A DNA stretch of 64,000 nucleotides from an uncultured Candidatus Saccharibacteria bacterium. Its GTDB lineage: Bacteria; Patescibacteriota; Minisyncoccia; Ryanbacterales; HO2-45-13. Location of the stretch: NCBI GenBank assembly GCA_964354975.1, contig CAYHBS010000002.1, positions 16,088 through 80,087 of the forward strand. The letters run 5' to 3'. Made by a program: the position numbers and the translations under genes. The notes beneath the pieces are model-generated. The model was given only the letters and a program-made list of their open reading frames with translations. It searched no databases and was not told where the DNA came from. Shown piece after piece: positions 1-13,966 of this stretch (position 1 is the stretch's first letter; each line of letters starts with the position of its first letter).

Positions 1-1
1 T

Positions 2-250
2 CGACTCGAGATCGATCCGCGCGCCGGACAGCTGTTTGTCTTCTGCAATGCCCGGCACAACCGACTCAAGATCCTTCAGTTCGATTCGTCCGGCGTTTGG
101 GTCGCGGCCAAGCGGCTCGAGAAAGGGACGTTTCGTTGGCCCGAGTCTCGCGATCGCACGATCGTGCTGAGCTACGAAGAGATGGTGATGATCGTGGGCG
201 GACTCGATGCGACGAGCACGCGTCGACGTCGCTGGTATGGTCGTGGATAA
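2..250 (+). pseudogene. tnpB: IS66 family Orf2 (TnpB) 3' fragment, truncated by the window start
   Basis: The translation RLEIDPRAGQLFVFCNARHNRLKILQFDSSGVWVAAKRLEKGTFRWPESRDRTIVLSYEEMVMIVGGLDATSTRRRRW matches the conserved IS66 Orf2 C-terminal region. The stop codon is at 248-250. Confidence 0.6.
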
Positions 251-299
251 CTCGTGCATTGCCGAGCGCGCGCGTATTGACCGAGTACGCGTCGTCCTC

Positions 300-494
300 G
301 GGCTGCGAGTCCTTGCTCTGATGCTCGGCCAGCTCGGCCGCCGCGGCAGCGAGCGCTTCGTCGAGCAGTTTGGCGAAATCCAAGCGCAGCTGCTCGGGGC
401 TCACCTGCTCGGAGCGCCGCCCGTACAGTCGTCGTAGCAGCGCCGAGGGCGGACGCAGAGCGGCCGTGCTGTACTCGCTGGTGGTCAGCTGCAA
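300..494 (-). pseudogene. IS66 transposase N-terminal-like fragment, inverted relative to the other pieces
   Basis: The minus-strand translation ...ALLRRLYGRRSEQVSPEQLRLDFAKLLDEALAAAAAELAE matches the N-terminal motif of IS66 transposases. Downstream similarity is lost. Confidence 0.35.
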
Positions 495-642
495 GCGACT
501 CGGGATCGATCCCTACGCCTACCTGCGCGACGTGATCGCCACGGTGGCAACCTATCCGAACAAGCGCATCGGCGAGCTCACGCCGAGGGCGTGGGCCGCG
601 GCGCGCGAACCTCGGAGCGAGACCCGCGTCGCTTCGGCATAG
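370..642 (+). pseudogene. IS66 family transposase (TnpC) C-terminal fragment
   Basis: The ORF ends with LYSLVVSCKRLGIDPYAYLRDVIATVATYPNKRIGELTPRAWAAA, characteristic of IS66 TnpC C-termini. The upstream about 400 residues of a normal TnpC are missing. Confidence 0.5.
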
Positions 643-783
643 CCGGCCTTACCGGTCTCAAGCCTTATCGGCAGTTGGTCGAACGCTTACGTTCCTCCGG
701 TGTGACCGTGAACAGTGCGGTCTGATCTCGTTGTACTCCCGTCGCCAGCTCTCGATCACGACCTTCGCTTCCTTCTGTGAATC

Positions 784-824
784 GGCTTCCAACTTTGACC
801 CCTTTCGGCGCGCGATTTTGCACG
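784..824. repeat. About 40-bp direct repeat copy 1 (ttccaacTttgacccctttcggcgcgcGatTttg)
   Basis: Near-identical to 2331-2371. The reverse complement contains GGGGTCAAG twice, spaced about 23 bp apart. Confidence 0.6.
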
Positions 825-880
825 GAACCGGACATTTCTACTTTGCGATGACAGCGCTGGGTTGACTCCACTACCCGGCC

Positions 881-1219
881 TTACGGAGGCACGGGCCGGC
901 TGCGCTGCTGCAGCCACTCCAGGAGCGGACCCAGCCCATCGGGTACAGACATCTCGTCGAACTCGAACCGGCGCACGTCCACACCGGTGTGGAGTTCGAG
1001 TTCGTACACGATCTGATCCCTCGCTGAAGAGGACCGCGCGGCAGACACGTCTGATCTCGCGCTGCTTGCAAAGCGCTCGATGGCGAGACGATGTGCGGCG
1101 ACCAGCTCCTCCGCTGCGACATCGCAACCGCGCGAGAGGTTCGCAAAGCCGCCAGACTGCCGGAAATGGATCTGCCGCAGGCTCATATCAAAAACCGACG
1201 GCCTTCCATGCCTTCGCAA
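881..1219 (-). CDS. Hypothetical 112-aa protein co-oriented and overlapping (32 nt) with the M4 protease gene; candidate protease-partner (emfourin-like inhibitor?)
   Basis: ORF directly downstream of the protealysin-like protease on the same strand, with overlapping stop and start. No recognisable catalytic motif. The partner role is inferred from the known bicistronic protealysin-inhibitor arrangement. Confidence 0.35.
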   Translation of the reverse strand: MRRHGRPSVFDMSLRQIHFRQSGGFANLSRGCDVAAEELVAAHRLAIERFASSARSDVSAARSSSARDQIVYELELHTGVDVRRFEFDEMSVPDGLGPLLEWLQQRSRPVPP

Positions 1220-2225
1220 CAGCTTTCTCTTCGGTCGTGCCCATGGCCGCGGCCATCCGCGTGCTCATCGCAACCATCTCGGCGAAATCGCTTTGCTTAT
1301 TCAGCGCCAGCAACGTCTGGTACCAGATTGCTCCGGCCCTGACCCACGCGTTGCCACCGAGCGCCGTCGCCGTGAGGAAGAACGCGTGATTGGGGATGCC
1401 CGAGTTGATGTGCACGCCACCCGAATCTGCAGGGCCTGTGTACTTGTCACACAAGTGCTTCGGTTGAGGGTCGGTCCCTAGATTCGGATCGTTCTCGTAA
1501 GCCTTCCCCTCTTTGAACGTCCGCAGCGACTTGGCCGTCGTGCCCGGACCCATGATGTCGGGGCCGATAAGCCAGTCAGCCTTCGTGGCCGTCTGCTTCC
1601 TTTTCCACTGCTTGACGAGGGTCCCGAAAACGTCAGCAAAATGTTCGTTGAGCGCGCCCGACTCGTCCCGATAGTCCAGGTTCGACGTGTGGCTCACCAC
1701 GCCATGCGTCAGTTCGTGACCCACTACGTCCATCGACCGCGTGAACCGATTGAAAATAACGCCGTCCCCATCGCCATACGCCATCTGCTCGCCGTTCCAG
1801 AACGCGTTGTTGTACTTGTTTCCGAGGTGCACACTTGAGATGAGTGACATTCCGCGGTCATCAAGTGAATTACGGTTGAGCACCTTTTTATAGAAGTCGT
1901 AGGTCGCGCCCGAGTAGTCGTACGCTTCGTTCACGGCGGGATCTGTAGATTTGTTGTCACCCTCGCTGCGCACAAGCTTGCCGGGCAAAAGCGACGAGCC
2001 CTGCTTCTGCATGTCGTAGATCAGCCGATCCTTCTTGGCCCCTGGCGACGGTACCGCGGCCATCATCGCGAACTGCGAAAGCGCGGTGCGCGTTGCGCGC
2101 AACGACGCGGATCGGGCGATGGCCTCGATCGCCAGCTTACGCACTGCCGGGATCGGTGACTCGGCCATCTTGTCTAGTACGTACGGCGGGAGGATGCAGT
2201 GAATAGGCTTGCGTCCGCAGCTCAT
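1188..2225 (-). CDS. M4 (thermolysin-family) zinc metalloprotease, protealysin-like subfamily
   Basis: HEXXH motif (VVGHELTHGV) plus downstream NEHFADVFG glutamate, typical of M4 peptidases. There is no signal peptide, and the short N-terminal propeptide carries the PPL-type motif (CILPPYVLDKM). A strong SD (AAAGGAG) lies 8 nt upstream of the ATG at 2225. Confidence 0.85.
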   Translation of the reverse strand: MSCGRKPIHCILPPYVLDKMAESPIPAVRKLAIEAIARSASLRATRTALSQFAMMAAVPSPGAKKDRLIYDMQKQGSSLLPGKLVRSEGDNKSTDPAVNEAYDYSGATYDFYKKVLNRNSLDDRGMSLISSVHLGNKYNNAFWNGEQMAYGDGDGVIFNRFTRSMDVVGHELTHGVVSHTSNLDYRDESGALNEHFADVFGTLVKQWKRKQTATKADWLIGPDIMGPGTTAKSLRTFKEGKAYENDPNLGTDPQPKHLCDKYTGPADSGGVHINSGIPNHAFFLTATALGGNAWVRAGAIWYQTLLALNKQSDFAEMVAMSTRMAAAMGTTEEKAVAKAWKAVGF

Positions 2226-2330
2226 GCTTATCTCCTTTATGATGTCTTACGCGTGTTCTCCGTCTTCGCTCTGCAGCGATTGGTCATTTTGTATCCGCCC
2301 ACCGAACCTGATGCCATTACGGTGTGGCTC

Positions 2331-2371
2331 AGCTTCCAACCTTGACCCCTTTCGGCGCGCAATCTTGACCC
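2331..2371. repeat. About 40-bp direct repeat copy 2 (ttccaacCttgacccctttcggcgcgcAatCttg), about 100 bp upstream of the protease start
   Basis: Matches 784-824 with 3 mismatches. The two copies bracket the protease/partner gene pair. Confidence 0.6.
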
Positions 2372-2720
2372 CACCCGGTGCTTGAGATCCTCAGTAACCA
2401 CGCTCGGTTGCACGGGCATGGTCGGGGTCACGCTTGGACGCCGATACGGGGTCACACGGCACGCCTCGGGACGCGAGGTAGTGCCGCTCGGCCCCGCGCT
2501 CGACGACTTCTCGCCGGCGCGTGTAGCGCTCTCGGGATCGCTGGATGATCTCGGCGCTGTAAGGCGCTGCAGGGGTAGGGTGGCAGAGAGTCCGGCCACT
2601 GAACGGCGCGGACGTTCGTCCGTTCACGGCAAGCCGGAGATAGATGTCGTGGTGATCGAGCCCGGTCAGATCATCAGTGCACACGCTGATCCTTACAAGA
2701 TTTCACCGCATGCGTTCTCG

Positions 2721-3110
2721 TCAGTCGTACGTAGCCACCGTGGGTGAGAATCCGCGACCGCAAGTGTCGCATTTTTCATGAACGTCGACGTAGCCAGAGG
2801 CATTGCGCTCTGCCAGTTGGGATACAAGCGTCCCCGAGCAGGGTGGCGGACATTTCCGAACCCGCCAGTGATCACCGCACATCGTGCAGAGATACGAAGT
2901 GCCAACTTCGTCTGGGCTCGACTCGATTTCGTGGTTTTCACATGTAGGACAGCACTGAACTACTTTCATCTCTTCCCTCTGTGCCAACGGCTCGCCGAGT
3001 TTGTTGATCGAGGATACCACATGTATCCGCGGAATAGTGGCGGAGCCCACCGGACGACGGCGGGGGACAGATGCCGAGTGGCAACTGAGCGACCGTCGTT
3101 TACCGCTCAA
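2721..3110 (-). CDS. Cys-rich putative zinc-ribbon protein (4 CxxC-type motifs)
   Basis: Contains CCPTC, CTMCG, CPPPC and CDTCG. It overlaps the upstream MBL gene by 11 nt, which suggests operon coupling. Confidence 0.4.
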   Translation of the reverse strand: MSGKRRSLSCHSASVPRRRPVGSATIPRIHVVSSINKLGEPLAQREEMKVVQCCPTCENHEIESSPDEVGTSYLCTMCGDHWRVRKCPPPCSGTLVSQLAERNASGYVDVHEKCDTCGRGFSPTVATYD

Positions 3111-4206
3111 TCACGGCGTCGTAGCGCCCGTCGGTCGTTGCCTGGATGCGCACAGTGCCGTCCCATCCCGTCGCCAGGATCGCTTTCTCTACCTGAACCG
3201 GTGAGAAATCGCGGACGCCGTTTGCGACCAATACGGTTTTCTTCGTCGCCCGCTCGGTAGCGATTGATTGAGTCAACAGGTCAACGGTGACCCGTCGAGG
3301 GTGCCCAAACTGCCACCCTGTGAATTTCTCTTGTGGATGCGAGCGGCCGTATTCCGCGTCCTCCATTGAAATTACGGCGATCGCAGGCGTCATCGCCTCG
3401 AGCAGCTTCCTCGTAGTCCCGTTATACGATCCATGATGCCCGACATGGTAGACGTCGACGTCGAGCGTCGTTGTCCCCCTGTACCAATCGAGCAACGTGC
3501 CGATCGCGTATTCCTCGAGATCGCCCGTGAACAGAAAGGATGACTCCCCGTAGTCGACACGCGTTACGAGGCTATGGTTGTTCTTGTTCGCCCATTCGCC
3601 TTGTGGCCATCCGGGATTGTCATCCATCCGGCCTGACAGAATACGAATCCGCGGGTTCACATCGCCACAATCGATCGGGTCGATGATGTCATCCGTTAGC
3701 CCTGTGCGCGTGGGAAGTCTGGTGATTTCGGAGTCGGCGACCTGGCGCGTCTCGATGTGGAGTGTTTCGGCGTTGTTCCTCACCCAGTTGGGCTCCCCAG
3801 TTCCCGTGCCGGTGCTCTGGCCGGAGTCGATAAAACGTTCCACCGTAAATGATTCGACAATCTCCCGCAGTGCCCGGGTATGGTCGATGTGGTTGTGCGT
3901 GATGATGATGGCGTCGAGCGTGTGGTGAAGTGCGGTGTGAAGAGGATCATCGAAGAAGGCTTGTAAATAGGCCACGAGTGCGTCGGCTTTCTCTTGATCC
4001 CTCGCGCCGGCGTCGATCAACACCGCTCCGCACGGGAACTCGAGGAGCGTGGCATCCGCTTGGCCTACGTCGATGAAATGCGCCACCATCGGCGCCGTTT
4101 CAGCAGCAGCAAAGCGCACTGAAAGCGCGAGAGCGCCGACAGCACAACAAACGCGGTAGGCGAGCCTGCGAGTCACAAAACACTGAACGGGCATAACAAA
4201 CTCCAC
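3100..4206 (-). CDS. Secreted metallo-beta-lactamase-fold hydrolase, ComEC/Rec2-type MBL domain
   Basis: N-terminal signal-peptide-like segment. MBL HxHxDH motif (ITHNHIDHT) and a downstream HVGHHGS motif, typical of ComEC C-terminal-like MBL domains. Confidence 0.7.
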   Translation of the reverse strand: MEFVMPVQCFVTRRLAYRVCCAVGALALSVRFAAAETAPMVAHFIDVGQADATLLEFPCGAVLIDAGARDQEKADALVAYLQAFFDDPLHTALHHTLDAIIITHNHIDHTRALREIVESFTVERFIDSGQSTGTGTGEPNWVRNNAETLHIETRQVADSEITRLPTRTGLTDDIIDPIDCGDVNPRIRILSGRMDDNPGWPQGEWANKNNHSLVTRVDYGESSFLFTGDLEEYAIGTLLDWYRGTTTLDVDVYHVGHHGSYNGTTRKLLEAMTPAIAVISMEDAEYGRSHPQEKFTGWQFGHPRRVTVDLLTQSIATERATKKTVLVANGVRDFSPVQVEKAILATGWDGTVRIQATTDGRYDAVIER

Positions 4207-4390
4207 ATCCCCGAAACGACGACACGGATTGTGCCGTGCCTATCTCGGGCGAAGCAATAGGGGATTCCCCTTACGACGCGGACAGCCCTGGACAGAACGG
4301 CTGAAACCGTCGTATTAAACGGCGGCTCGAGGGGGCAGTCGACGTCGGCACACTTGACGCGACGTACCTACTGCGCACACAAGACAGACA

Positions 4391-5683
4391 ATGTACGACC
4401 TGGGGCTTGCACTGTCGGGTGGCGGCTCTCGTGCCGCCGCCTTCCACGCTGGAACGCTCAGGGCGATAGCCGATCTCCATCTCGTCGAGCGAATCGATGT
4501 TGTCTCGACGGTCTCTGGCGGGTCGTTGTTCGGGGGCGCCTGGCTCGCGGCGCGCGCCAGGGGTGAGTCAGAAGACGCATTCCTGGCAAGCATGAAGACG
4601 GAGCTCGAGAGAGGTTTCATCCTACGTTCGCTTCGCCCCTCGCTGGCGAAAACGTTCCTCCCGTGGCTCGAATACACCCGGACGCACGTGATCGGCGACA
4701 CGTTCGACCGGATTTTCCTTAAAGGCTTGACGCTCTCTGGCTTGCCCGAGCGCCCGGCGCTATGCCTGAACACGTCAATCCTCAACAACGGCCAGGTAGG
4801 GAAGTTCTCGCGTGAGGGATTTTCTGCTTGGGGCCTAAAAGTGCCCGGCGCAACGCCTGAGCATGTCGTCCCGTGGCACAACTTCCCGGTCGCGTACGCA
4901 GTGGCTGCCTCTGCGGCATTCCCGGTTGGACTACCGCCGCTTCGGCTGGGCCACGGACGATTTCCGTCCGGTACACGCTTCACGGAGGGACTTGCGGGTT
5001 CGAAACACCTTTTCCTAACCGATGGCGGCGTGCTGGAGAATCTAGGGATTCAGACGCTCCTGCGATCCGGCCGGTTCGCGGCTTGGGATCTTATCGTCAG
5101 TGACGCTGGCACAGCAGATACACGGTGGAGTCTCGTGCCAGGATGGTCGACAGTAAAGGGCCTAGGTATCTGGATTGCGAGTGGGCGGATCTTGGACCGA
5201 CTCATGATCGTGATGAACAACAAACAGAATCGGTGGGCTCGTCAGGAGGTGATCGACCAACTTGAATCCTCGTGGTTCGCAGCGGCTCTCCGTGACGGCC
5301 TAAAGACACCTGCCATCGATACTCTGCTGCGCACTCATCCCGTCCGGGCTCGGAGAAAGCTCATCTTCGCTCGCGTGAATCAGACCCGAAAATCTTTTGT
5401 CACTGGCATACCGAGACATCGGCTCGCAGAACTCGCCGATGGCAACGAGCGTGACGTCCCTGGGTCAGATGACTACGGGGGGTTATGTGACTTTCTACGC
5501 GCCGCGGGAGTGCATCTGGAGCAGGCGGACACATACTACGGTCAACTCGGCGATGACACGCAGGCGCTCGCAATGAATGAGGTGAAGACAAACTTCACCG
5601 CGTTACCAACGCAAGTCGTTGAACAACTGTCAAACCACGCTGCGTGGCAGGTGCACGCATGCGCGGCTGTGTACGGTGGATGA
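4391..5683 (+). CDS. Patatin-like phospholipase
   Basis: Oxyanion hole GGGSRAAAFHAG, nucleophile elbow G-x-S-x-G (TVSGGS) and catalytic Asp in the DGG motif (LTDGGVLENLG). Confidence 0.8.
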   Translation: MYDLGLALSGGGSRAAAFHAGTLRAIADLHLVERIDVVSTVSGGSLFGGAWLAARARGESEDAFLASMKTELERGFILRSLRPSLAKTFLPWLEYTRTHVIGDTFDRIFLKGLTLSGLPERPALCLNTSILNNGQVGKFSREGFSAWGLKVPGATPEHVVPWHNFPVAYAVAASAAFPVGLPPLRLGHGRFPSGTRFTEGLAGSKHLFLTDGGVLENLGIQTLLRSGRFAAWDLIVSDAGTADTRWSLVPGWSTVKGLGIWIASGRILDRLMIVMNNKQNRWARQEVIDQLESSWFAAALRDGLKTPAIDTLLRTHPVRARRKLIFARVNQTRKSFVTGIPRHRLAELADGNERDVPGSDDYGGLCDFLRAAGVHLEQADTYYGQLGDDTQALAMNEVKTNFTALPTQVVEQLSNHAAWQVHACAAVYGG

Positions 5684-5720
5684 GCAAAGAGGCTCACATC
5701 GATAGGTCGGGTGCCAAGGT

Positions 5721-6365
5721 ATGAAAATTGAAGAGATCGGGCCGTGGATACTGTTGTTTGTAGGCGCGCTGTTACTGCTGGGCGGTGCTTCTCTTGCCGC
5801 CCGAAAGCGTGGCAGTGTCCCAATGATCACCATCCTACTGATCTTTGGCCTCGGAACTGCGGGCATTGGCGTGTATGGCCCAACCTTTTTGGATCGATAC
5901 CAGCTGCTCAAAACGGTGGGGCCGTTGATTGGTTCACCGAGCCACGAGAGCTACAATGCGTTCCTCTCCGGTGTAGCGAGGGGGGACGTCGGACCGCTCG
6001 AGCGAGAACTTGGCCTGTCCTACATCTTGCAGCGGCCGATCGACGGGACAGAAGAGCTACTTCAGGCAGCGACGGCAAAGGCGGAACAAGATGACGCCCG
6101 AGTCGCTCTCAGCGCCGCAGGACAATGGCTCGAGGGGCGCCAGCGGGTAGCGGCTGTCTTGGCGGCCGATCTGATGCCGTCCAACCATACCGCGCGTCTT
6201 AGCGAGGAACAAGTCAAATTATTTGACCCGGCAACCCGCACCTTGATTATTCGCGATCTCGAGAAGCACGACGGGCGGCGACTCGCGACTGACCCGGGCG
6301 TCGTTGCACGGCTGAAGCACACAACACCTGATTTTCTGGAGCCAGGTCCAGTCATAGATCGGTGA
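5721..6365 (+). CDS. Membrane protein (two N-terminal TM helices), hypothetical
   Basis: Hydrophobic N-terminus (WILLFVGALLLLGGASLAA, ITILLIFGLGTAGIGVY). High-GC codon usage like the upstream genes. Confidence 0.4.
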   Translation: MKIEEIGPWILLFVGALLLLGGASLAARKRGSVPMITILLIFGLGTAGIGVYGPTFLDRYQLLKTVGPLIGSPSHESYNAFLSGVARGDVGPLERELGLSYILQRPIDGTEELLQAATAKAEQDDARVALSAAGQWLEGRQRVAAVLAADLMPSNHTARLSEEQVKLFDPATRTLIIRDLEKHDGRRLATDPGVVARLKHTTPDFLEPGPVIDR

Positions 6366-6535
6366 GCATACGGCGTTTCTGTGCGCCATTTTTTTTCGCC
6401 AATGACTCACAGCACATTGAGAAAGCCTCCGGAAAATCCGGGGCGATTCAAGAAAGCGTCAAGGATCATCTACGGTTGCCTCGCACGCCAACATCTCCAT
6501 CCTTCACGCTTCCTTCGCTCTTTCTATACTGGAGC

Positions 6536-6700
6536 ATGGAACTGACAGACGAAGATATCGTCGAGTATCAAGTGATGTGGAAAGAGGAATTCGGAGAAGA
6601 GATTAGCACAGCAGACGCGCGGCGCAGTGCGAGTGAACTCTTGGAGCTCTTCCGTGTGCTCTTCTTCGAGTCATCATCAGTCGAGCAGGAGGAAGAGTAA
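6536..6700 (+). CDS. Small acidic hypothetical protein (54 aa), speculative
   Basis: ATG-initiated sub-ORF of the 6362-6700 frame (MELTDEDIVEYQVMWKEEFGEE...). It lies at the GC-composition transition and has no clear SD. Confidence 0.2.
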   Translation: MELTDEDIVEYQVMWKEEFGEEISTADARRSASELLELFRVLFFESSSVEQEEE

Positions 6701-6837
6701 CAGGTCACGCGGCTTCTCGTAACGATTCATTCATGAGATCGTGAAGATTCTTTAGTTCGTCCTCATTCGCTGCATTCGCGCAAAAAGTTCGAACGTCCTC
6801 TACATAGCTCCACAGACATAGAATAGTATGGAAGAAT

Positions 6838-6880
6838 AAAAAAACAGCTCTCATTCGCATAAGCGTCCGAGAGCTGTTTA
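6838..6880 (-). terminator. Rho-independent terminator for the 6894-7661 gene
   Basis: 10-bp stem (CAGCTCTC.../...GAGAGCTG) followed on the minus strand by a T-run, immediately downstream of the minus-strand stop at 6894. Confidence 0.6.
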
Positions 6881-6893
6881 CTAACGTTAAATT

Positions 6894-7661
6894 TCAAGCA
6901 AGGAGCTGTAAGGCCTTGGCGAGATATTCTCCCGCCATGCACCAATTAATTGGATCGAGAGCGCTTCCGCTGGGGCGAAGCTGACCCTGTGCATCAATGC
7001 TCAAATCAGGGAACTCTGCAACAAGTGGCGCGACCAACTGAATCGTTTTCGGCCCGAGACCGCCGGCGGCGCCGATCCCGAACATTGGGAAACTCTCCCT
7101 GATCGCTCGCGCAAATGGGATGAGACCGTCGGCGTCCATGCCGAGACCCTTTCCCATACTTTTGTCGAGTAATACCCGGTGAATCACGCCTTCGTAGTTG
7201 CCGAGACGCTCGACGACTCTCCGTGGATCATTGTCGACTTCCTCCAGTGCGTTCTTGCCAATCTGGAGGACAATTTCAATCTGCTTGCGTGAAGTGCGAA
7301 CTCCGCGTGCAATCTCGCCAGGATCCGGCCAGATCATATCGAGCTGAAGAGCGTGGATACCGATACCTCCGTAGGAAATCGCAGTTGCGAGACTTTTCCA
7401 AAGATCGGGGTTGTTGTCATAATCCACGTAGTGCAGACAGTTGTATACTTCGTCCAAGGAGAAAATGCTCGCGATACGATCTTTTGGCGGAAAAGCGTTT
7501 TGCCACTTGCTCGGAATGCCGTGGAGTGTCTTATGACTCATCATGATGCCGACATGCAACACCCTGTTCGATTCATGCGATCGATGAGCGTTGAATACTC
7601 GTAACATTTCTTGAACTTGTCCGAAATCCGTGAAGTCGGTAATGCCGATGTATGGATTCAT
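6894..7661 (-). CDS. TIM-barrel protein resembling phosphoribosylanthranilate isomerase (TrpF-like)
   Basis: N-terminal YIGITDF (compare KICGIT), LLDKSMGKGLGMDADGL (compare LLDS..GGTG..FDW) and AAGGLGP...SIDAQGQL (compare AGGL.P.NV...GVDVSSG). It is an orphan, with no other trp genes nearby. Confidence 0.4.
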   Translation of the reverse strand: MNPYIGITDFTDFGQVQEMLRVFNAHRSHESNRVLHVGIMMSHKTLHGIPSKWQNAFPPKDRIASIFSLDEVYNCLHYVDYDNNPDLWKSLATAISYGGIGIHALQLDMIWPDPGEIARGVRTSRKQIEIVLQIGKNALEEVDNDPRRVVERLGNYEGVIHRVLLDKSMGKGLGMDADGLIPFARAIRESFPMFGIGAAGGLGPKTIQLVAPLVAEFPDLSIDAQGQLRPSGSALDPINWCMAGEYLAKALQLLA

Positions 7662-8089
7662 TTATAGCACCCTTTGTAAAGATTTTGGTTTCCAAAAACA
7701 CATTACATTTTTTGACGCGAATAAGCAACAATTCACCAGGTTCTAACTTCTTCCACGTATCTTATCTGGACAACCCCCGTATCAAATGTTTTTGTACATT
7801 CTTGCAAACCGTTTATATATGCCATACATCGACTTCTTTTCCCACAGACCACGTTGTATGTGCCCCCGCTCCTCTACTGAAATATGCTTGTATGTCATCA
7901 CCCTTTCAGATTACAGGGCGGTGCACTTACTTGTTGAACTTACTGTTTTTGCTATTGACAATATAATTGATAATGTGTATAATATATAGGTATAATTCCT
8001 ATTCGAATGGATAGGTCGTTCCGTGATGGGTCAGGTGGTTAGAATCCTGCCACAACATAGGATTCACAGCACATTGGATTCACAACACA

Positions 8090-8608
8090 TTGAGAAGGAG
8101 GTGCCGTATGGCACGCCAAAACGTAGAGTTCGCTATTGTCCAAGGACCCTCGAAGCTCGATCTGATGCTCTCTCTGTTCGACACTAACATGGGGGTGCGG
8201 ACGGTGAGTTTTCTGACGGCCAAGGGTGAAAACCAACCGGGTTTCTCCTACAACGTCCATATCATCTCCGTGAGGAGAGGACATCCCAGCGCAAAGATCT
8301 GGGAAATCGAGGGGCTCACAGAAACCCAAAACGGGAAGAAGAGGGTCTTGATCTACTACCTCTCGGACACGCGCGAAGGTCACATGAGAATCGAAGAGAA
8401 TCTTCGGACCAAAGGAATCATTGAAACGCCCAACAACTCTCGGAAAGCGGGTGCTCTCCTCGAAATCATCTTCAGGATGATTAACAGGTATCGGGAAAGT
8501 CATTCCGGCAACCTGGACGAAGAGATCTTCAATTTTTTCGAGAAGGCGAAGCGAGTTTACTACGCCAAGGACCGCTATTTCCTCACCAGGGCGATCAAGA
8601 ATATCTGA
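8090..8608 (+). CDS. Hypothetical protein (172 aa)
   Basis: Strong SD (GAAGGAGGTG) 6 nt upstream of the ATG. A terminator hairpin follows. No recognisable motifs. Confidence 0.5.
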   Translation: MRRRCRMARQNVEFAIVQGPSKLDLMLSLFDTNMGVRTVSFLTAKGENQPGFSYNVHIISVRRGHPSAKIWEIEGLTETQNGKKRVLIYYLSDTREGHMRIEENLRTKGIIETPNNSRKAGALLEIIFRMINRYRESHSGNLDEEIFNFFEKAKRVYYAKDRYFLTRAIKNI

Positions 8609-8626
8609 GGTCAAGAACCTCAACCA

Positions 8627-8670
8627 GGGCCCCTCGTGGAAGAAATTCCGCGTGGGGCTCTCACTTTTTA
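8627..8670 (+). terminator. Rho-independent terminator after the 8090-8608 gene
   Basis: GC-rich imperfect hairpin (GGGCCCCTCGTGG...CCGCGTGGGGCTC) followed by CTTTTTATATTT. Confidence 0.5.
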
Positions 8671-9253
8671 TATTTGTAATTTGTTGATATAATTCCATAA
8701 AGAATTTAAGAATTTGCCGCCAAAGCAGTAAATTCAACATCAATCTTCATCATTGAATCCGACAATTTGGATCTTTTGACTTTCTTGCTCATTCGACGCC
8801 TCCAAATCCCTGCCTCAATATATTAAAGAGAATTACTGCCGCAACTACAGACTCACGCTACACATAAGACAATATATCATTGGAATTTTATAAAAAGAGA
8901 ACCGTTTCACGTGCAACACCACAAATGATTACCCATAATCACTCGTACATATCAAGACTCTCTTAGATTTAGTATGTCGCACAAATAATATGTGAAACAC
9001 TCAAAACTATTACAATATTGATATTATAGACAATGTCGCTAAAGAAGATCCGAAGTTACGCCTAATACCAACAGTCAGTAGGCGGAAATAATAAGGAGGT
9101 TATGGTTTCACGTGAAATACACAGCTACTGTGGATAACTTGTGTGTTAAAATATAAAGGCCAGTGTCCCTGACCTTAAATGTCTTGTAGGATAAGGACAT
9201 ATGGCCTTGACCCTTGTGTGTATGAACCGTGGATAACTATTGATATTATGAGC

Positions 9254-9790
9254 CTTCAAAAGGACGTTGGTGAGGTAGGAGAGGATATTGTCCGATTGTT
9301 TCTCATGAAACAAGGGCATTCTATCGTCGCAAAAAACGCTCTTGGATATGGCTTTGAAATTGATATTGTTTCACGATATCATGGTTGCTTCTATTTTATC
9401 GAGGTAAAAAGTGTTTCCCATGAAACATATAGTCCCGGCTATTACGCCAGCGACAGATCGCGCTTACTTGTATGGCTTGGCAATGTTGCCAGAGGAGGAT
9501 GGAGAATACTTTCCGAGGGGAAAAAGAGTCGAAAGATTTTATTCTGGAATATCAATGAGACTGGGGAATCTTCTTCTGAAACGCAGATCGAGGAGTGGAA
9601 TAATTTGCTCGCTGGCGCGGCTGACCGAGTGAATTCGCTGAAATTGTTACATGTGAAACGAGGGATTGAGATTCTGACTCATAAGGGTCTCGTCCCGGAT
9701 GATGCCGAGCTGTCTTTTGAGGTGATAACGGTCATGCTCGATTTCTTTAGAAAAACCGCTATAATACAGCGCATTCCTTGTGAACTCTGA
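9254..9790 (+). CDS. YraN/UPF0102-family (PD-(D/E)xK) endonuclease-like protein with about 80-aa C-terminal extension
   Basis: MSLQKDVGEVGEDIVRLFLMKQGHSIVAKNALGYGFEIDIVSRYHGCFYFIEVKS matches the YraN family pattern (GE..A..YL...G..IL.RN.R...GEIDL.A.....L.FVEVK). The upstream in-frame extension to 9179 is probably not translated. Confidence 0.55.
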   Translation, partial: LQKDVGEVGEDIVRLFLMKQGHSIVAKNALGYGFEIDIVSRYHGCFYFIEVKSVSHETYSPGYYASDRSRLLVWLGNVARGGWRILSEGKKSRKILFWNINETGESSSETQIEEWNNLLAGAADRVNSLKLLHVKRGIEILTHKGLVPDDAELSFEVITVMLDFFRKTAIIQRIPCEL

Positions 9791-9852
9791 TGTTTCATGT
9801 GAAACGCGGAGGCTCTGATATTGGAGCTTTTAGCTGATAGGGGAAATACCAG

Positions 9853-10036
9853 CTTACTGTGACTCTCGGGCTGTCGGCCGTACTTCTATGAGATAAATTA
9901 AGGAAGTCGGCACCACCCGTATTGAGAATATCATCACCTTACGGTGATTATCGGGCTGTCGGCCGCACTTCTAAGAGATAAGCTATTGAAGTCGGCACCA
10001 CTTGTATTGAAAGTATCGTCACCTCGCGGTGACTAA
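9853..10036 (+). repeat. Tandem repeat of about 85 bp (two full units plus a third that continues into tRNA-Pro); each unit begins with a copy of the tRNA-Pro 5' leader and first 10 nt (cgggctgtcg) and ends in a GGTGA/TCACC hairpin
   Basis: Unit A 9853-9937 and unit B 9938-10022 are about 85% identical over their full length. The third unit (10023-) diverges into the authentic tRNA at 10037. Confidence 0.7.
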
Positions 10037-10107
10037 CGGGCTGTCGTATACCGGTAGTACGCATGTTTTGGGAACATGTAGACTGGGTTCAATTCCCAGC
10101 AGCCCGA
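10037..10107 (+). tRNA. tRNA-Pro (anticodon TGG), CCA not encoded
   Basis: Manual fold: acceptor CGGGCTG/CAGCCCG, D-arm GTAT-ACCGGTA-GTAC, anticodon stem CATGT/ACATG with loop TTTGGGA (U33, anticodon UGG, G37), T-arm CTGGG-TTCAATT-CCCAG, discriminator A followed by CCG. Confidence 0.8.
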
Positions 10108-10109
10108 CC

Positions 10110-10234
10110 GGTTTTTGGAGGGAAGCAGGAGGCAAACTGCTTTGCCTCTGTTGGGAATTGAAGGGCGAGCGATGTGCGAAGCACCGCAAAGCCCCGGCCG
10201 AGCTGATGGAGCGAGGAAGACCAGCAGCCCGACC
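10110..10234 (+). ncRNA. tRNA-linked structured element copy 1 (hairpin GAGGCAAAG/CTTTGCCTC, hairpin GTGCgaaGCAC, then a duplicate of the tRNA-Pro 3' end CCAGCAGCCCGACC)
   Basis: About 75% identical to the element after the second tRNA-Pro. The first hairpin shows compensatory changes between copies (GAGGCAAA/TTTGCCTC versus CAGGTAAA/TTTACCTG). Confidence 0.4.
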
Positions 10235-10269
10235 AGTAATCGTGAAGAAAGAATGCCTATTTTAATGTG

Positions 10270-10340
10270 CGGGACGTCGTATACCGGTAGTACATACGAT
10301 TCGGGTTCGTATAGACTGGGTTCGATTCCCAGCGTCCCGA
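10270..10340 (+). tRNA. tRNA-Pro (anticodon CGG), CCA not encoded
   Basis: Acceptor CGGGACG/CGTCCCG, same D-arm as the first tRNA-Pro, anticodon stem TACGA/TCGTA with loop TTCGGGT (anticodon CGG), T-arm CTGGG-TTCGATT-CCCAG, discriminator A. Confidence 0.8.
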
Positions 10341-10342
10341 CT

Positions 10343-10480
10343 GAACGAAGTGAAGGAGGTGCAGCAGGTAAACTACTTTACCTGCGTTGGGAATCGAAGG
10401 GCGAGCGATGTGCGTAGCACCGCATAGCCCCGGCCGAGCAGATAAAGCGAGGGATTCCCAGCCTGCCCACTTTGTGGGCG
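10343..10480 (+). ncRNA. tRNA-linked structured element copy 2 (hairpin CAGGTAAAG/CTTTACCTG, hairpin GTGCgtaGCAC, terminal hairpin GCCCACtttGTGGGC)
   Basis: Paralogous to 10110-10234 with covarying stem positions. Confidence 0.4.
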
Positions 10481-10563
10481 GCCCGAATGAATAAACAAAA
10501 GAGTGCGAAAAAAGTAAACTGATGCGTCTGCATTTGGATTGAATAACTCGGTATTTTTTTGAA

Positions 10564-10592
10564 TAAAAAAAGGAGTGCTGGTTAGGCACTCC
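10564..10592 (-). terminator. Rho-independent terminator for the 10607-10978 gene
   Basis: On the minus strand, hairpin GGAGTGCctaaccaGCACTCC followed by TTTTTTTT, immediately downstream of the stop. Confidence 0.65.
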
Positions 10593-10606
10593 AAGGTTCT
10601 GAAGCA

Positions 10607-10978
10607 CTACTCAAGTGTCGGCACCCTTTCGATTATATAGTCATTATTGAAACAATCTCCGCGATACACTTCGGTGCGAATCTTGTAGGGCAGCTTAGCC
10701 CTCCTAAATCTTTGATTGAGACTGCCAATTATGCCACCCGTGCTAAAACCATCAAACATTGTTTGGCCATGCGCTCTTCCTTTCCCATTTCGAAGTGCTA
10801 CAAGGAGTCCGGTAGTTTTTCCCTGAAATGCAAGGGTTGTGAAAATATTCTCCCAATCTTTGTGTGTTAAAGAAGGGGGATTTTCGTCGGTTTCAATGTT
10901 TGTTGTCGAGATTGTTTCCCAAGTTGCTTTGCCTTTTGCGTCTCGTGATTGTTGTTGGATCGTGATGCGGAGCAACAT
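10607..10978 (-). CDS. Small basic protein, possibly a divergent ribosomal protein L19 homolog (tentative)
   Basis: LAFQGKTTGLLVALRNGKG and RFRRAKLPYKIRTE loosely parallel the L19 motifs AFEGVVIAIRNRG and RKAKLYYLRE. The similarity is weak. Confidence 0.35.
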   Translation of the reverse strand: MLLRITIQQQSRDAKGKATWETISTTNIETDENPPSLTHKDWENIFTTLAFQGKTTGLLVALRNGKGRAHGQTMFDGFSTGGIIGSLNQRFRRAKLPYKIRTEVYRGDCFNNDYIIERVPTLE

Positions 10979-11087
10979 AAGACCTCCTTTTTTCCTGGAA
11001 GACTCCTAGACGAAGGAAAGCAGAAAGCGCATGAGAAGTCAAATAGTTGCAGCAAAAGATATCCTAACGACGTAACAGTACTTACCA

Positions 11088-12551
11088 CTATTTCACTTTG
11101 TGGCGTTTTTTTATTTTTTCGACTTCAGAACCCTCAACTTCTGCGGATGTTGATTTTGCTTCTTCTGATTTTTTCTTCAGCGCTACGTCATCCAGTTTGT
11201 TCAATGTTATTGCGAGATCCATGAGATATTCTTTCGTATTGTTCTTTGGCTCGTCGAGCACCGCGCCAAGAAGTGCATTCAATATATAACCAATGCGCGG
11301 GCTAGGGGAGAGTGAGAGCTCTTTCATAAGATCATTTCCAGTGACCTTGAGCATTTTCACGGATATTGGATCGCGCTGGAGTTGTTCCACCATGAAACGA
11401 AAATGACGCAATTTATATGGCTCTGCCTTTGGTACGCCCGAACCGATGCGGTCGCACATACGCACGCGAATGAGATCTTCCATATCTTCCACTCCCACTT
11501 GCGCAATGAGGCGTCGTACTGACGCGGGCGTCACTTCATCAACGTTGTAGTAGAACAAATGAAAGCGCACCAGCTTGGTGACTTTTTCTACCACCGACTT
11601 TGAATATTTCATACGCTCAAGTAGTGGACGCGCCATTTGCGCACCCACAATGTCGTGATTATAGAACGTGGAATATGTTCCATCGCCTTTTTTGGTGCGT
11701 GGTTTTGCAACGTCGTGAAGCAGTGCGCCGAGACGTACTTCAAGTGACCACCCTTGCTCCGCCGCGTATTTGAGCGCACGTACGTTGTGCTCCCACACCG
11801 TGTAGATGTGATGCAAATTTTGACCAACACCAATGCCCTCACAGAGTTCTGGCATGATGTATTGCATTAAGTCGAGCGTTTCGAGTTGTTGCACACCCAC
11901 TTCGGGATGCTCGGACATAATGATGCGGTCAAATTCCGCGCGAATCCGCTCCATCGCAATATCTTTGAGGAGTGCGGAATATTTATGCACGGCATTTGCG
12001 GTTTCGGACGCTATGGCAAAATCCAGTTGTGTAGCAAAGCGTACTGCACGCATAAGGCGAAGCGCGTCTTCGGAAAGTCGTGCAGCAGGATCTCCCACGG
12101 TTTTTACAATCTTCTTTGCCAAATCTTTCTCTCCACCAAATGGATCGACAATTTCAAAATCATTTTTTACGCGACACATTGCCATTGCATTGATGGTGAA
12201 ATCGCGACGTGCTAAATCTTTCTCAAGCGAATCGACAAATTCCACAGCGTCGGGGCGGCGGCGATCAGCATATCCCTGTTCGGTTCGGTACGGAGTCACT
12301 TCAATGATTGCGAGTGTTTCATCTTCACTTCCCGTTTTTATGCCGACCGTGCCGAAATTATTTTCGTAGACGTGGTCGGGGAATAACTTTTGAATATCTT
12401 CTGGTTTTGCGTTTGTCGTTACGTCCCAATCAGCGGGGGCGCGGCCAAGGAGTAAATCGCGAACACATCCACCAACAATGTATGCATCAAAACCACCTTC
12501 CTCAAGTATGTTGAGGACGCGCGTTACTTCAATTGGAATGGAGTATTTCAT
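11088..12551 (-). CDS. cca: CCA-adding tRNA nucleotidyltransferase (class II, PolyA_pol head plus HD domain)
   Basis: N-terminal GGCVRDLLLGR...DWDVTT nucleotidyltransferase motif. RDFTINAMA motif. HD domain in the C-terminal half. 487 aa. Confidence 0.85.
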   Translation of the reverse strand: MKYSIPIEVTRVLNILEEGGFDAYIVGGCVRDLLLGRAPADWDVTTNAKPEDIQKLFPDHVYENNFGTVGIKTGSEDETLAIIEVTPYRTEQGYADRRRPDAVEFVDSLEKDLARRDFTINAMAMCRVKNDFEIVDPFGGEKDLAKKIVKTVGDPAARLSEDALRLMRAVRFATQLDFAIASETANAVHKYSALLKDIAMERIRAEFDRIIMSEHPEVGVQQLETLDLMQYIMPELCEGIGVGQNLHHIYTVWEHNVRALKYAAEQGWSLEVRLGALLHDVAKPRTKKGDGTYSTFYNHDIVGAQMARPLLERMKYSKSVVEKVTKLVRFHLFYYNVDEVTPASVRRLIAQVGVEDMEDLIRVRMCDRIGSGVPKAEPYKLRHFRFMVEQLQRDPISVKMLKVTGNDLMKELSLSPSPRIGYILNALLGAVLDEPKNNTKEYLMDLAITLNKLDDVALKKKSEEAKSTSAEVEGSEVEKIKKRHKVK

Positions 12552-12826
12552 ATGTTGCGTATTTGTAATGCACCGCGCAGCATTTGCTTTAATGCATTCT
12601 TACCACGTGTGGTCTTAAAATATCCTTCACGTCACTTCGCATCATCTATGACGCTGTGTGCTTCATAATATATTAAAACAAACGGACGACGTGACTTGGT
12701 AGACTTTGACCCGCCATTCTTGTGCTCTTTCATTCTTCTCCGCAAATCCGATGAGTAACCGATATATAGCTTATTGTCCAAGAGACTTTTTAGGACATAG
12801 GTATAGTACATTCTCCTATTGTACAT
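12548..12826 (-). pseudogene. GIY-YIG nuclease-domain gene interrupted by an in-frame TGA (codon at 12630-12632) at a conserved Arg position
   Basis: The N-terminal 64 aa (YTYVLKSLLDNKLYIGYSSDLRRRMKEHKNG...RRPFVLIYYEAH) is classic GIY-YIG. After the TGA, the same frame continues as REGYFKTTRGKNALKQMLRGALQIRNI, matching the family C-terminus (KRREKYFKTTKGKKAL..ML). Its terminal TGA overlaps the cca ATG (ATGA coupling). Confidence 0.6.
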
Positions 12827-12905
12827 CGATCACATTATTGATTGGGAATTCATTGACCGTAAACCACGTTGGGTTCACGGCCATGAACTCCATGTAGTTC
12901 ATGGG

Positions 12906-12978
12906 TCCGCCCACTTGGATTCGAACCAAGGACCCACTGCTTAAGAGGCAGTTGCTCTACCAGCTGAGCTATAGGCGG
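12906..12978 (-). tRNA. tRNA-Lys (anticodon CTT), CCA not encoded
   Basis: Minus-strand fold: acceptor CCGCCTA/TGGGCGG, D-arm GCTC-AGCTGGTA-GAGC, anticodon stem ACTGC/GCAGT with loop CTCTTAA, T-arm CTTGG-TTCGAAT-CCAAG, discriminator A. Confidence 0.8.
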
Positions 12979-12984
12979 AAGATA

Positions 12985-13130
12985 TATGCACAAAAACATT
13001 AAATCATGAAAACACATGAACATTAAAGCACAAGAACACCAGAACATTAAAGCAAAAAAACATTAAATTATGAAAACACAAGAACATTAAATCACAAAAA
13101 CACGAAAACAAAAGAACACAAACAGTTTAT
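12985..13130. repeat. A-rich degenerate tandem repeat (aacattaaa[gt]ca... units, about 8 copies)
   Basis: Repeated acattaaa cores at irregular spacing of about 17-21 bp between tRNA-Lys and tRNA-Arg. Confidence 0.6.
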
Positions 13131-13234
13131 CGCGATCCCCCCGCCAGCTGGCGGATCCCACCCCGCTTTGCGGGGACGCTCCGACTTTCGAGTCCCTCCC
13201 GTCCCGCGCACCGGCGGGACTCTCGGACGCCTTG
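13131..13234 (-). other. GC-rich cluster of 3-4 hairpins immediately 3' of tRNA-Arg (CGCCAGCTGGCG palindrome, CCCCGCtttGCGGGG, GTCCCGCcggtgcGCGGGAC)
   Basis: Local GC is much higher than the flanking sequence. Contains a T-arm-like GGAGGGACTCGAAAGTC segment. Could be a terminator array, an att-site remnant or a small RNA. Confidence 0.35.
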
Positions 13235-13307
13235 CGTCCTCGGAGGGACTCGAACCCCCAACCTTTGGTTCCGAAGACCAACGCTCTAGCCATTGAGCTA
13301 CGAGGAC
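13235..13307 (-). tRNA. tRNA-Arg (anticodon TCG), CCA not encoded
   Basis: Minus-strand fold: acceptor GTCCTCG/CGAGGAC, D-arm GCTC-AATGGCTA-GAGC, anticodon stem TTGGT/ACCAA with loop CTTCGGA, T-arm GGGGG-TTCGAGT-CCCTC, discriminator G. Confidence 0.75.
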
Positions 13308-13408
13308 ATGCATGGACAGCGCTCTATTTATACCATGACATTTCACGAAAATAAAGAAAGGGCGGGAGGATCCGTATGGATCTTCCCGCCCCAGTTGTTT
13401 GCACCTCC

Positions 13409-13966
13409 TTAGCTATCTCGCCGCACATCAACTCCGAAGCTATACGTGCGATAAGGGTTGTCCGGATCCGGTAGAAATTTCACCCTCGCTCCACGCGACG
13501 GCATATAACTGAAACATGAAACGCCGGCTGGTGGCGGAGGATCACACTCCAACACACCAATCCGATTTTGAGAACTATCTCGAAAGTCGGTCTCCTCGTT
13601 TGTGCAGTCTGAGCAAACGGGAATGACCTTCCCTTTTCCGCTCGCGATCTTGATGTACGGAGTAACGTCGCCCGGCTTATACCGACGAAATTCCGTGCTC
13701 ACCACCGTTCCTACGTCCTGTCTGAAGAGCCAATGACTCTCGAGCGGCATTTCAACCGTCGGAGAGCCTTTGTAGTGAATCACCCAGTCGGAGTCGTAGT
13801 ATGAGTCGGTAAGGGGATTGTACTGCGCAATGAGTCTCATCACATCAGCACTCGCCCCAAACGTTGTTGTCATACTACCGACGCTCATCACCATCATCGC
13901 AACGGCACTCAGAATGAAGAGTGCACGAGCAATGCGAATGATCCGAGGAATCGTTGTCTTGTTCAT
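13409..13966 (-). CDS. Membrane-anchored hypothetical protein (N-terminal TM, Cys-containing extracytoplasmic domain)
   Basis: Hydrophobic segment ALFILSAVAMMVMSVGS. Overlaps the upstream gene by 4 nt. Confidence 0.45.
   Translation of the reverse strand: MNKTTIPRIIRIARALFILSAVAMMVMSVGSMTTTFGASADVMRLIAQYNPLTDSYYDSDWVIHYKGSPTVEMPLESHWLFRQDVGTVVSTEFRRYKPGDVTPYIKIASGKGKVIPVCSDCTNEETDFRDSSQNRIGVLECDPPPPAGVSCFSYMPSRGARVKFLPDPDNPYRTYSFGVDVRRDS

Follow-up and report, generated by a model that had tools for sequence, protein, structure and literature searches.

Introduction

The operon designated 6a was described by Iyer et al in 2006 (Table 1, row 6a; PMC1779556) as a two-gene arrangement in which an E2-E1-JAB gene is joined to a specialised metallo-beta-lactamase (MBL), and patatin is unmentioned in that work. 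According to a 2026 review (PMC13276650), 6A-MBL was reported by van den Berg et al in 2024 to be anti-phage in Pseudomonas aeruginosa. In a preprint of 2024 (PMC11601596), 'MBL pathways' were grouped with type II CBASS (cyclic oligonucleotide-based anti-phage signalling system) and with Pycsar, and an E2-E1 fusion was described as conjugating the signalling enzyme. Our literature search found no paper combining patatin with Cap2, JAB or MBL. In addition, no NCBIfam model names the patatins that are linked to 6A-MBL in the loci described below, and patatin is not a curated 6A-MBL component.

In the present study, we analysed a stretch of 64,000 nucleotides (nt), hereafter the window, from an uncultured Candidatus Saccharibacteria bacterium of the Patescibacteria (assembly GCA_964354975.1, contig CAYHBS010000002.1, positions 16,088 to 80,087). 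Positions 2721-6365 of this window had been proposed, in an earlier reading of the sequence (the original prediction), as a possible effector or defence cassette composed of a Zn-ribbon protein, a ComEC-type MBL hydrolase, a patatin-like phospholipase and a membrane protein. We found that this cluster is not a conserved system and is probably a chance mosaic of unrelated accessory genes, and that its patatin belongs to a lineage which elsewhere follows 6A-MBL-type operons.

Results

All four open reading frames (ORFs) are present where the original prediction had placed them. To survey conservation of the arrangement, we used 79 genome loci with a relative of the patatin, including 27 loci with full-length orthologues, and 80 metagenome loci with a relative of the MBL, including 17 orthologue loci. 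Co-occurrence was tested by tblastn with every protein of the surrounding foreign island, which continues to the left of the window on contig L001, against these loci. An MBL of the same family, the Zn-ribbon ORF and the membrane protein of 214 amino acids (aa) were found at none of the 27 patatin orthologue loci. Likewise, none of the 17 MBL orthologue loci held an orthologue of the window patatin or of either orphan ORF, and an E1/E2/JAB gene was found at none of the 17. The Zn-ribbon ORF and the 214-aa protein, as well as the M4 protease and emfourin encoded elsewhere in the island, had no homologue in any fetched patatin or MBL locus. The four genes never co-occur in the surveyed loci, an outcome that the original prediction had named as refuting it, and a four-gene effector or defence cassette is not supported. 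PADLOC, which had been suggested as a check, recognised no defence system in the island proteins; the patatin drew no match at all, the MBL gave weak and partial ones only, to generic MBL effector models, and the NCBIfam scan of the island proteins gave no system either.

The patatin-like phospholipase gene (4391-5683, + strand) encodes 430 aa and matches PF01734 at E = 1.2e-19 (71.8 bits against a cutoff of 27.7, residues 6-223). The motifs SGGGSR (residues 9-14), V41-S42-G43-G44 and D211-G212-G213 lie in invariant columns, and all 48 invariant columns of the family alignment are retained; the serine motif reads T-V-S-G-G, in which the first glycine of GxSxG is replaced. The protein has no hydrophobic N-terminal segment. 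Its AlphaFold2 (AF2) model, with a predicted local distance difference test score (pLDDT) of 87 and a predicted template modelling score (pTM) of 0.88, has an extra helical C-terminal half of ~200 residues. The best PDB matches of this model by Foldseek were CapV and CapE, followed by PlpD, VipD and cPLA2, with a Foldseek probability of 1.00 for CapV, PlpD, cPLA2 and VipD. The PF01734 score above the gathering cutoff, the catalytic motifs and the patatin alpha/beta fold bear out the earlier call of a patatin-like phospholipase, and the protein is predicted to be an intact cytoplasmic Ser-Asp lipase. There was no CapV-type match for this protein at E <= 0.01 in PADLOC or NCBIfam, and no CD-NTase or other CBASS model of PADLOC matched any of the six island proteins scanned.

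All seven patatin orthologues that are at least 53% identical and have readable flanks lie directly downstream of an E2-E1-JAB and MBL operon (loci L006, L007, L021, L008, L169, L170 and L171), six of them in the fused 6A-MBL form and one in the split form. The identity between the window patatin and those encoded immediately after bona fide 6A-MBL gene pairs is 53-59%. In a locus from Latescibacterota (L006, 6660-11335), a 58%-identical patatin comes directly after a 6A-MBL pair that scores 371 bits with NF058524 (cutoff 220) and 611 bits with NF058523 cap2_3 (cutoff 320). The same layout was seen in L007, L021, L169, L170 and L171. The last three, which are the closest metagenomic orthologues on long contigs, comprise a gene of 368 aa, an E2-ThiF-JAB gene of 737 aa and the patatin, and are surrounded by PIN, HTH/M78, methyltransferase, SIR2 and HEPN genes. 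A split operon with the order E2, E2, E1, JAB, ComEC-like MBL and patatin occurs in Myxococcota and Acidobacteriota (L008, 6389-11350; L010; L014), and the MBL of this split operon scores 77 bits with TIGR00361, against 80 bits for the window MBL.

Neighbour clustering of the patatin orthologues returned one recurrent neighbour, an MBL-fold gene, and the top Pfam families among 120 neighbours were ThiF (6), Lactamase_B (5), Prok-JAB (5) and Prok-E2_A (3). By tblastn, an MBL and cap2_3 adjoin the patatin in at least 35 of the 79 genome loci (L037-L073 are among the loci), in many phyla and including the distant patatins of Streptomyces and Rhodobacterales. An MBL-fold gene of one of at least four subtypes lies within two genes of the patatin in 11 of the 27 orthologue genome loci; in L016, L035, L029 and L015, MBLs of other subtypes are found within this distance and E1/E2/JAB is not detectable. 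In a neighbour-joining tree (no bootstrap), the sister group of the window patatin is a clade whose members are all operon-linked. In one uncultured actinomycete (L072, 7553-11119), the E2-E1-JAB and patatin parts are contained in one uninterrupted ORF of 1188 codons, which may be a natural fusion of the two; the alternative is a sequencing error that removed a stop codon.

The partners of these operons were not found beside the window patatin. E1, E2, JAB, cap2_3 and 6A-type MBL, decayed fragments included, were searched in the window and L001 by tblastn with the L006 cap2_3 and the L008 E2, E1 and JAB proteins (best E = 0.06) and with 6A-type MBL proteins, and none was detected. In the absence of the 6A-MBL partners from this DNA, the window patatin is therefore orphaned.

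Relatives of the patatin also occur on viral contigs and plasmids. Two viral loci are 25-32% identical to the patatin domain and a third matches over ~45 residues only, while seven plasmid relatives cover about half of the query at 30-35% identity; in the one plasmid patatin context inspected there were no 6A-MBL genes. Since the viral and plasmid patatins are only distant, the family is not mainly phage- or plasmid-borne. In a second metagenomic 6A-MBL-patatin operon (L172, 2660-10186), the MBL gene is fragmented into three short ORFs, and two genes downstream stands an intact IS66 transposase; this is an example of 6A-MBL-patatin systems decaying beside IS66 elements. Three patatin paralogues were seen within ~115 kb on a Rubritalea contig (CBDBEG010000052.1; L009, L032 and L034), one of which (L009) has three different MBL-fold genes around it.

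The window MBL (3100-4206, - strand) is a stand-alone ComEC-type hydrolase of 368 aa whose N-terminus is signal-peptide-like; in the version of the gene callers it begins at 4194 and has 364 aa. It matches Lactamase_B of Pfam (E = 3.4e-14). In NCBIfam, TIGR00361 (ComEC/Rec2) comes out best, at 80 bits against a cutoff of 190 and over model positions 418-633 of 663 only, and the solved structures closest to it by sequence are ComEC MBL domains (E = 2.6e-19). On these three grounds, the original designation as a ComEC-type MBL was correct. On the 6A-MBL enzyme model NF058524, whose cutoff is 220, it reached 37.2 bits, and the match spans no more than a short stretch. The search returned 3259 homologues; among the best 120 of these, query coverage was 84-99% and the proteins were stand-alone and ~320-480 aa long, except one of 606 aa. 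The housekeeping option that had also been raised, in which this gene is a truncated ComEC, was rejected, as was a truncated ComEC pseudogene; the protein is a full-length member of a stand-alone family and is not shortened in comparison with hundreds of proteins of about the same length.

Among 37 aligned members of this family, where the window MBL is 46-58% identical to the other 36, residues H104, H106, D108, H257 and H258 do not vary, and the HxHxD(H) and GHHGS metal motifs are conserved. The N-terminus (RRLAYRVCCAVGALALSVRFAAA/ETAP) resembles, by eye, a signal peptide with a basic stretch, VCCAVGALALSV and AAA/E. An N-terminal extension before a conserved Met, typically basic and then hydrophobic, is present in 34 of the 37 members, the other three beginning at this Met, and the window MBL has no transmembrane segment other than the N-terminal signal-like stretch. 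It can be read as an exported ComEC-like hydrolase, as predicted from this N-terminus, and the analogy with the ComEC nuclease domain suggests that it is probably an extracytoplasmic nuclease or phosphodiesterase. No conserved neighbours of the MBL were found: among 73 neighbours of 12 MBL orthologues, Pfam families recur at most twice.

The cluster stands at the right end of a foreign island. The guanine-cytosine (GC) content of the window is ~60% over the first 6.4 kb against ~48% over the other 57 kb, and a 100-nt profile places the step at ~6300-6500, with a fall from ~0.6 to 0.46-0.52 from 6300 on. On contig L001, the high-GC block continues leftward beyond the window for at least 6 kb, and IS66 TnpB, DUF6650 and other genes are found there. 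Because L001 prolongs the block leftward, the island is at least 12.7 kb long, and its left end lies outside the available DNA. Its GC content (window 1-6400 and L001:1-12000) is 55-65%, against ~48% for the Patescibacteria genome. The top matches of the island genes are in Latescibacterota, Myxococcota, Acidobacteriota and Planctomycetota, and the host-side proteins are labelled Patescibacteria group bacterium by NCBI. The earlier view of a foreign, IS66-associated block was confirmed by the GC step near 6400, an IS66 C-terminal fragment in the window and the IS66 TnpB on L001.

The junction was reproducibly recovered. An identical patatin protein was found on five contigs from several separate samples (0.1 µm fraction of Hainich groundwater; Logan assemblies); three of the five span the junction between high and low GC, and the same junction was reached from the host side in a fourth sample. 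The gene order at the junction, patatin, 214 aa, orf112 and orf255, recurs in ERZ1292617, ERZ1292616, Logan SRR32696699 plus five further samples, and ERR3858112. A terminator scan detected a terminator-like hairpin with a T-run (GGCGTTTCTGTGCGCC ATTTTTTTTC; 6372-6397, + strand), which begins 7 nt past the stop of the 214-aa gene and sits at the right edge of the island, on the compositional break. No integrase was seen in the island (window 1-6400 and L001:1-12000), and the scan for flanking repeats at the island ends gave no convincing pair, because the left end is beyond the available DNA.

The 214-aa orphan protein (5721-6365, + strand) starts 37 nt after the patatin stop and has two N-terminal transmembrane helices (hydrophobic segments at residues 2-28 and 31-54), in agreement with its original description as a membrane protein. 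The ORF has gene-like GC at the three codon positions (0.68/0.46/0.63) and, being on the same strand, is probably co-transcribed with the patatin. The protein had no family match, a search of 5.8e9 clusters returned only itself, and the AF2 single-sequence model (pLDDT 51) was too poor for a fold search.

The Cys-rich, Zn-ribbon-like ORF (2721-2969, - strand) encodes 82 aa from an ATG at 2969, the earlier version of 129 aa having been started from a TTG at 3110. The ATG at 2969 is the likely start, and a Shine-Dalgarno-like GAGGG stands 5 nt before it. The original prediction had the coding sequences of the Zn-ribbon protein and the MBL overlapping; this is true only with the TTG start, and the likely ATG start leaves a gap of 130 nt between the ORF and the MBL stop. 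The cysteine pattern itself is real, with C6, C7, C10, C28, C31, C40, C44, C67 and C70 forming CxxC at 7-10, 28-31 and 67-70 and CxxxC at 40-44. GC is flat over the codon positions (0.55/0.53/0.57), gene callers left the ORF uncalled on three independent contigs (L001-L003), and an exhaustive HMMER search with the 82 aa against 1.84 billion representatives gave no real homologue and only two low-complexity Cys-rich repeat proteins. For these reasons its coding status is uncertain, and the ORF may not be a gene.

Further to the left in the island, a C-terminal fragment of an IS66 transposase (370-642, + strand; PF13817 DDE_Tnp_IS66_C, E = 2.2e-11) is a mobile-element remnant, and the IS66 TnpB gene lies farther left on L001; the IS66 genes of the island are fragmentary. 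On the strand opposite to this fragment, a 142-aa ORF (66-494, - strand; LRRLYGRRSEQVSPEQLRLDF) resembles, by eye, the N-terminal region of IS66 transposase, and if it is this region, the IS66 remnants would have been rearranged. Emfourin (881-1219, - strand; PF20242, E = 6.5e-13) and an M4 protealysin-like metalloprotease (1188-2225, - strand; PF01447, E = 1e-33; PF02868, E = 2e-44) form a separate two-gene island module at 881-2225, outside the claimed cassette. The protease has no N-terminal hydrophobic signal. The pair is bracketed by a 56-nt direct repeat of 80% identity at 776-831 and 2323-2378 (core GCTTCCAACYTTGACCCCTTTCGGCGCGC), as if it were a separately inserted cassette or the repeat were a regulatory element.

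An Rfam scan of window positions 1-14000 gave nothing except four tRNAs. Two tRNA-Pro genes (anticodons TGG and CGG) lie at 10037-10109 and 10270-10341, which is 3.6 kb right of the island edge and not at the junction. A 20-nt motif, GAYTCACARCACATTGAGAA, was noticed at 6404-6423, just past the right edge of the island. It occurs twice in tandem at 8061-8080 and 8077-8096, 1.66 kb deeper in the host DNA, and a weaker copy lies inside the island at L001:2511-2530, 9.5 kb leftward. This motif could be a host regulatory motif or a relic of an insertion site.

Discussion

We consider it reasonably probable that the cluster is part of a mosaic foreign block, in which an intact patatin of a 6A-MBL-linked lineage, parted from its controlling genes, stands beside an unrelated MBL and two lineage-specific ORFs. 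Unrelated accessory genes would then be neighbours at the right-hand end of the block (at least 12.7 kb, ~60% GC), in the genome of a groundwater member of the Patescibacteria (candidate phyla radiation, CPR). In the native 6A-MBL-type operons, to judge by gene order and fold, the patatin most plausibly serves as a membrane-degrading, abortive-infection effector, like CapV in CBASS. With E2-E1-JAB and the cognate MBL missing from its context, the window patatin would be an orphaned effector carried by horizontal transfer, and the window MBL, which comes from a widespread stand-alone family without fixed partners, would adjoin it by accident. The transcript of the patatin would probably include the downstream two-helix membrane gene and end at the terminator-like hairpin, with the doubtful Cys-rich ORF nearby. 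Of the effector or defence reading in the original prediction, two elements survive, namely the defence-linked lineage of the patatin and the foreign nature of the block, but the cassette lacks conservation and the E2-E1-JAB partner is absent.

Several points weigh against an orphaned patatin with a chance neighbour. The left end of the island, with any genes there, is outside the available DNA, and the absence of partners covers the window and L001 only. MBL genes are enriched beside the patatin clade (11/27 loci), and the adjacency seen in the window may thus be more than a coincidence. The patatin, with all the family-invariant residues, its own downstream gene and a terminator, may be functional rather than a passive remnant. 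Furthermore, the N-terminus of the MBL is signal-peptide-like by eye and by family pattern only.

In a rival explanation, the divergently transcribed MBL and patatin work together as a minimal 'MBL pathway'. Such a pathway would be a form of 6A-MBL that does without the Cap2/3-like protein, just as Cap2/3 is missing from type I CBASS; its upstream enzyme would be the MBL, its effector the patatin, and the two small ORFs might be lineage-specific accessories. The patatin is indeed intact, the association of several MBL subtypes with its clade in 11 of 27 genome loci is far above chance and speaks against accidental adjacency, MBL-patatin pairs without detectable E1/E2/JAB exist in L016, L035 and L029, and the MBL of the split operons is likewise ComEC-like (77 bits on TIGR00361, window 80 bits). 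We nevertheless regard such a pathway as unlikely, as the window MBL subfamily is signal-peptide-like at its N-terminus and the patatin has no export signal, none of the 17 orthologues of this MBL subfamily adjoins a patatin orthologue or an E1/JAB gene and there is no second example, and PADLOC reported no system. In addition, the two window genes are divergent, whereas the MBL directly upstream of the patatin is co-directional with it in L016, L035, L029 and the operon-linked loci. A bolder form of the same idea, which we find very unlikely, would make MBL and patatin the conserved core of a CBASS-like 'MBL pathway', with the patatin as an unnamed effector and E2-E1-JAB as an optional regulator; the window would then hold a stripped-down version, with a signal-peptide-like N-terminus on the MBL, that works as a defence or toxin pair and that a CPR bacterium has newly acquired. 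To our knowledge, CPR bacteria are generally considered poor in known defence systems.

An attractive alternative is to regard the island as a horizontally acquired lytic toolkit of protease, nuclease and phospholipase, with which an episymbiotic CPR bacterium attacks or feeds on its host cell or environmental polymers. CPR bacteria depend on nucleotides and lipids from their host, three hydrolases (the MBL, the patatin and the M4 protease, which is accompanied by its inhibitor emfourin) are gathered in one foreign block, and the MBL family has signal-peptide-like N-termini. However, a hydrophobic signal at the N-terminus is absent from both the patatin and the M4 protease, the island showed no genes for a secretion system, orthologues of the three hydrolases do not co-occur, those of the patatin sit in an intracellular anti-phage operon context, and the fragmentary IS66 genes of the island suggest decay, all of which makes a toolkit quite unlikely. 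The sharp GC step from 0.60 to 0.48 and the top matches of the island genes in Latescibacterota, Myxococcota, Acidobacteriota and Planctomycetota are also what would be expected of an assembly chimera or contamination on a Patescibacteria contig, in which case the neighbourhood would be artefactual. Against this stand the identical junction in contigs assembled independently from different samples and the terminator-like hairpin exactly at the junction. Chimerism is highly improbable, because the same junction recurs in independent assemblies and the host-side proteins are those of Patescibacteria.

Taking the orphaned patatin in a mosaic block as the preferred reading, the record on this DNA is corrected: the cluster at 2721-6365 should not count as a candidate defence or effector system. 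The feature of the window is itself ordinary, and the patatin as third gene of 6A-MBL is the more notable by-product. Patatin-like phospholipases are frequent in this position in many phyla, of which there is no mention in the 2006 description, in the NCBIfam models or in the searchable literature. Should the patatin be the effector, it becomes testable how 6A-MBL stops phage, and likewise whether the MBL makes or processes a signal. In addition, the foreign island, which is at least 12.7 kb long, carries three hydrolases and was reproducibly assembled in a Patescibacteria genome, bears on the acquisition of accessory functions by reduced episymbionts.

Compared with known systems, the window MBL shares with ComEC/Rec2 the MBL nuclease domain, which is its best structure and NCBIfam match, and the conserved HxHxD(H) and GHHGS motifs; it differs in having no competence channel or OB-fold domain, so that the full ComEC architecture is not reached. 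The M4 protease and emfourin inhibitor at 881-2225 are arranged as in the protealysin-emfourin operon, but they lie outside the claimed cassette, and no homologue of either turned up at the orthologue loci of the patatin or of the MBL. With CapV and CapE of CBASS, which are its best PDB matches (E = 3e-9, template modelling score 0.42-0.51), the window patatin shares the patatin fold with a predicted Ser-Asp dyad, whereas the identity is 13-17% only and the helical C-terminal half of ~200 residues is additional. The position of its orthologues as the last gene after an enzyme regulated by E2-E1-JAB recalls type II CBASS. From 6A-MBL, the window differs in having neither E2-E1-JAB (NF058523) nor the dedicated MBL (NF058524) above cutoff. 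The MBL linked to 6A-MBL is a dedicated cytoplasmic enzyme, and the window MBL is another type of protein, signal-peptide-like at its N-terminus and divergent in orientation from the patatin. The likeness to 6A-MBL lies in the patatin, which groups as sister to the patatins next to 6A-MBL pairs.

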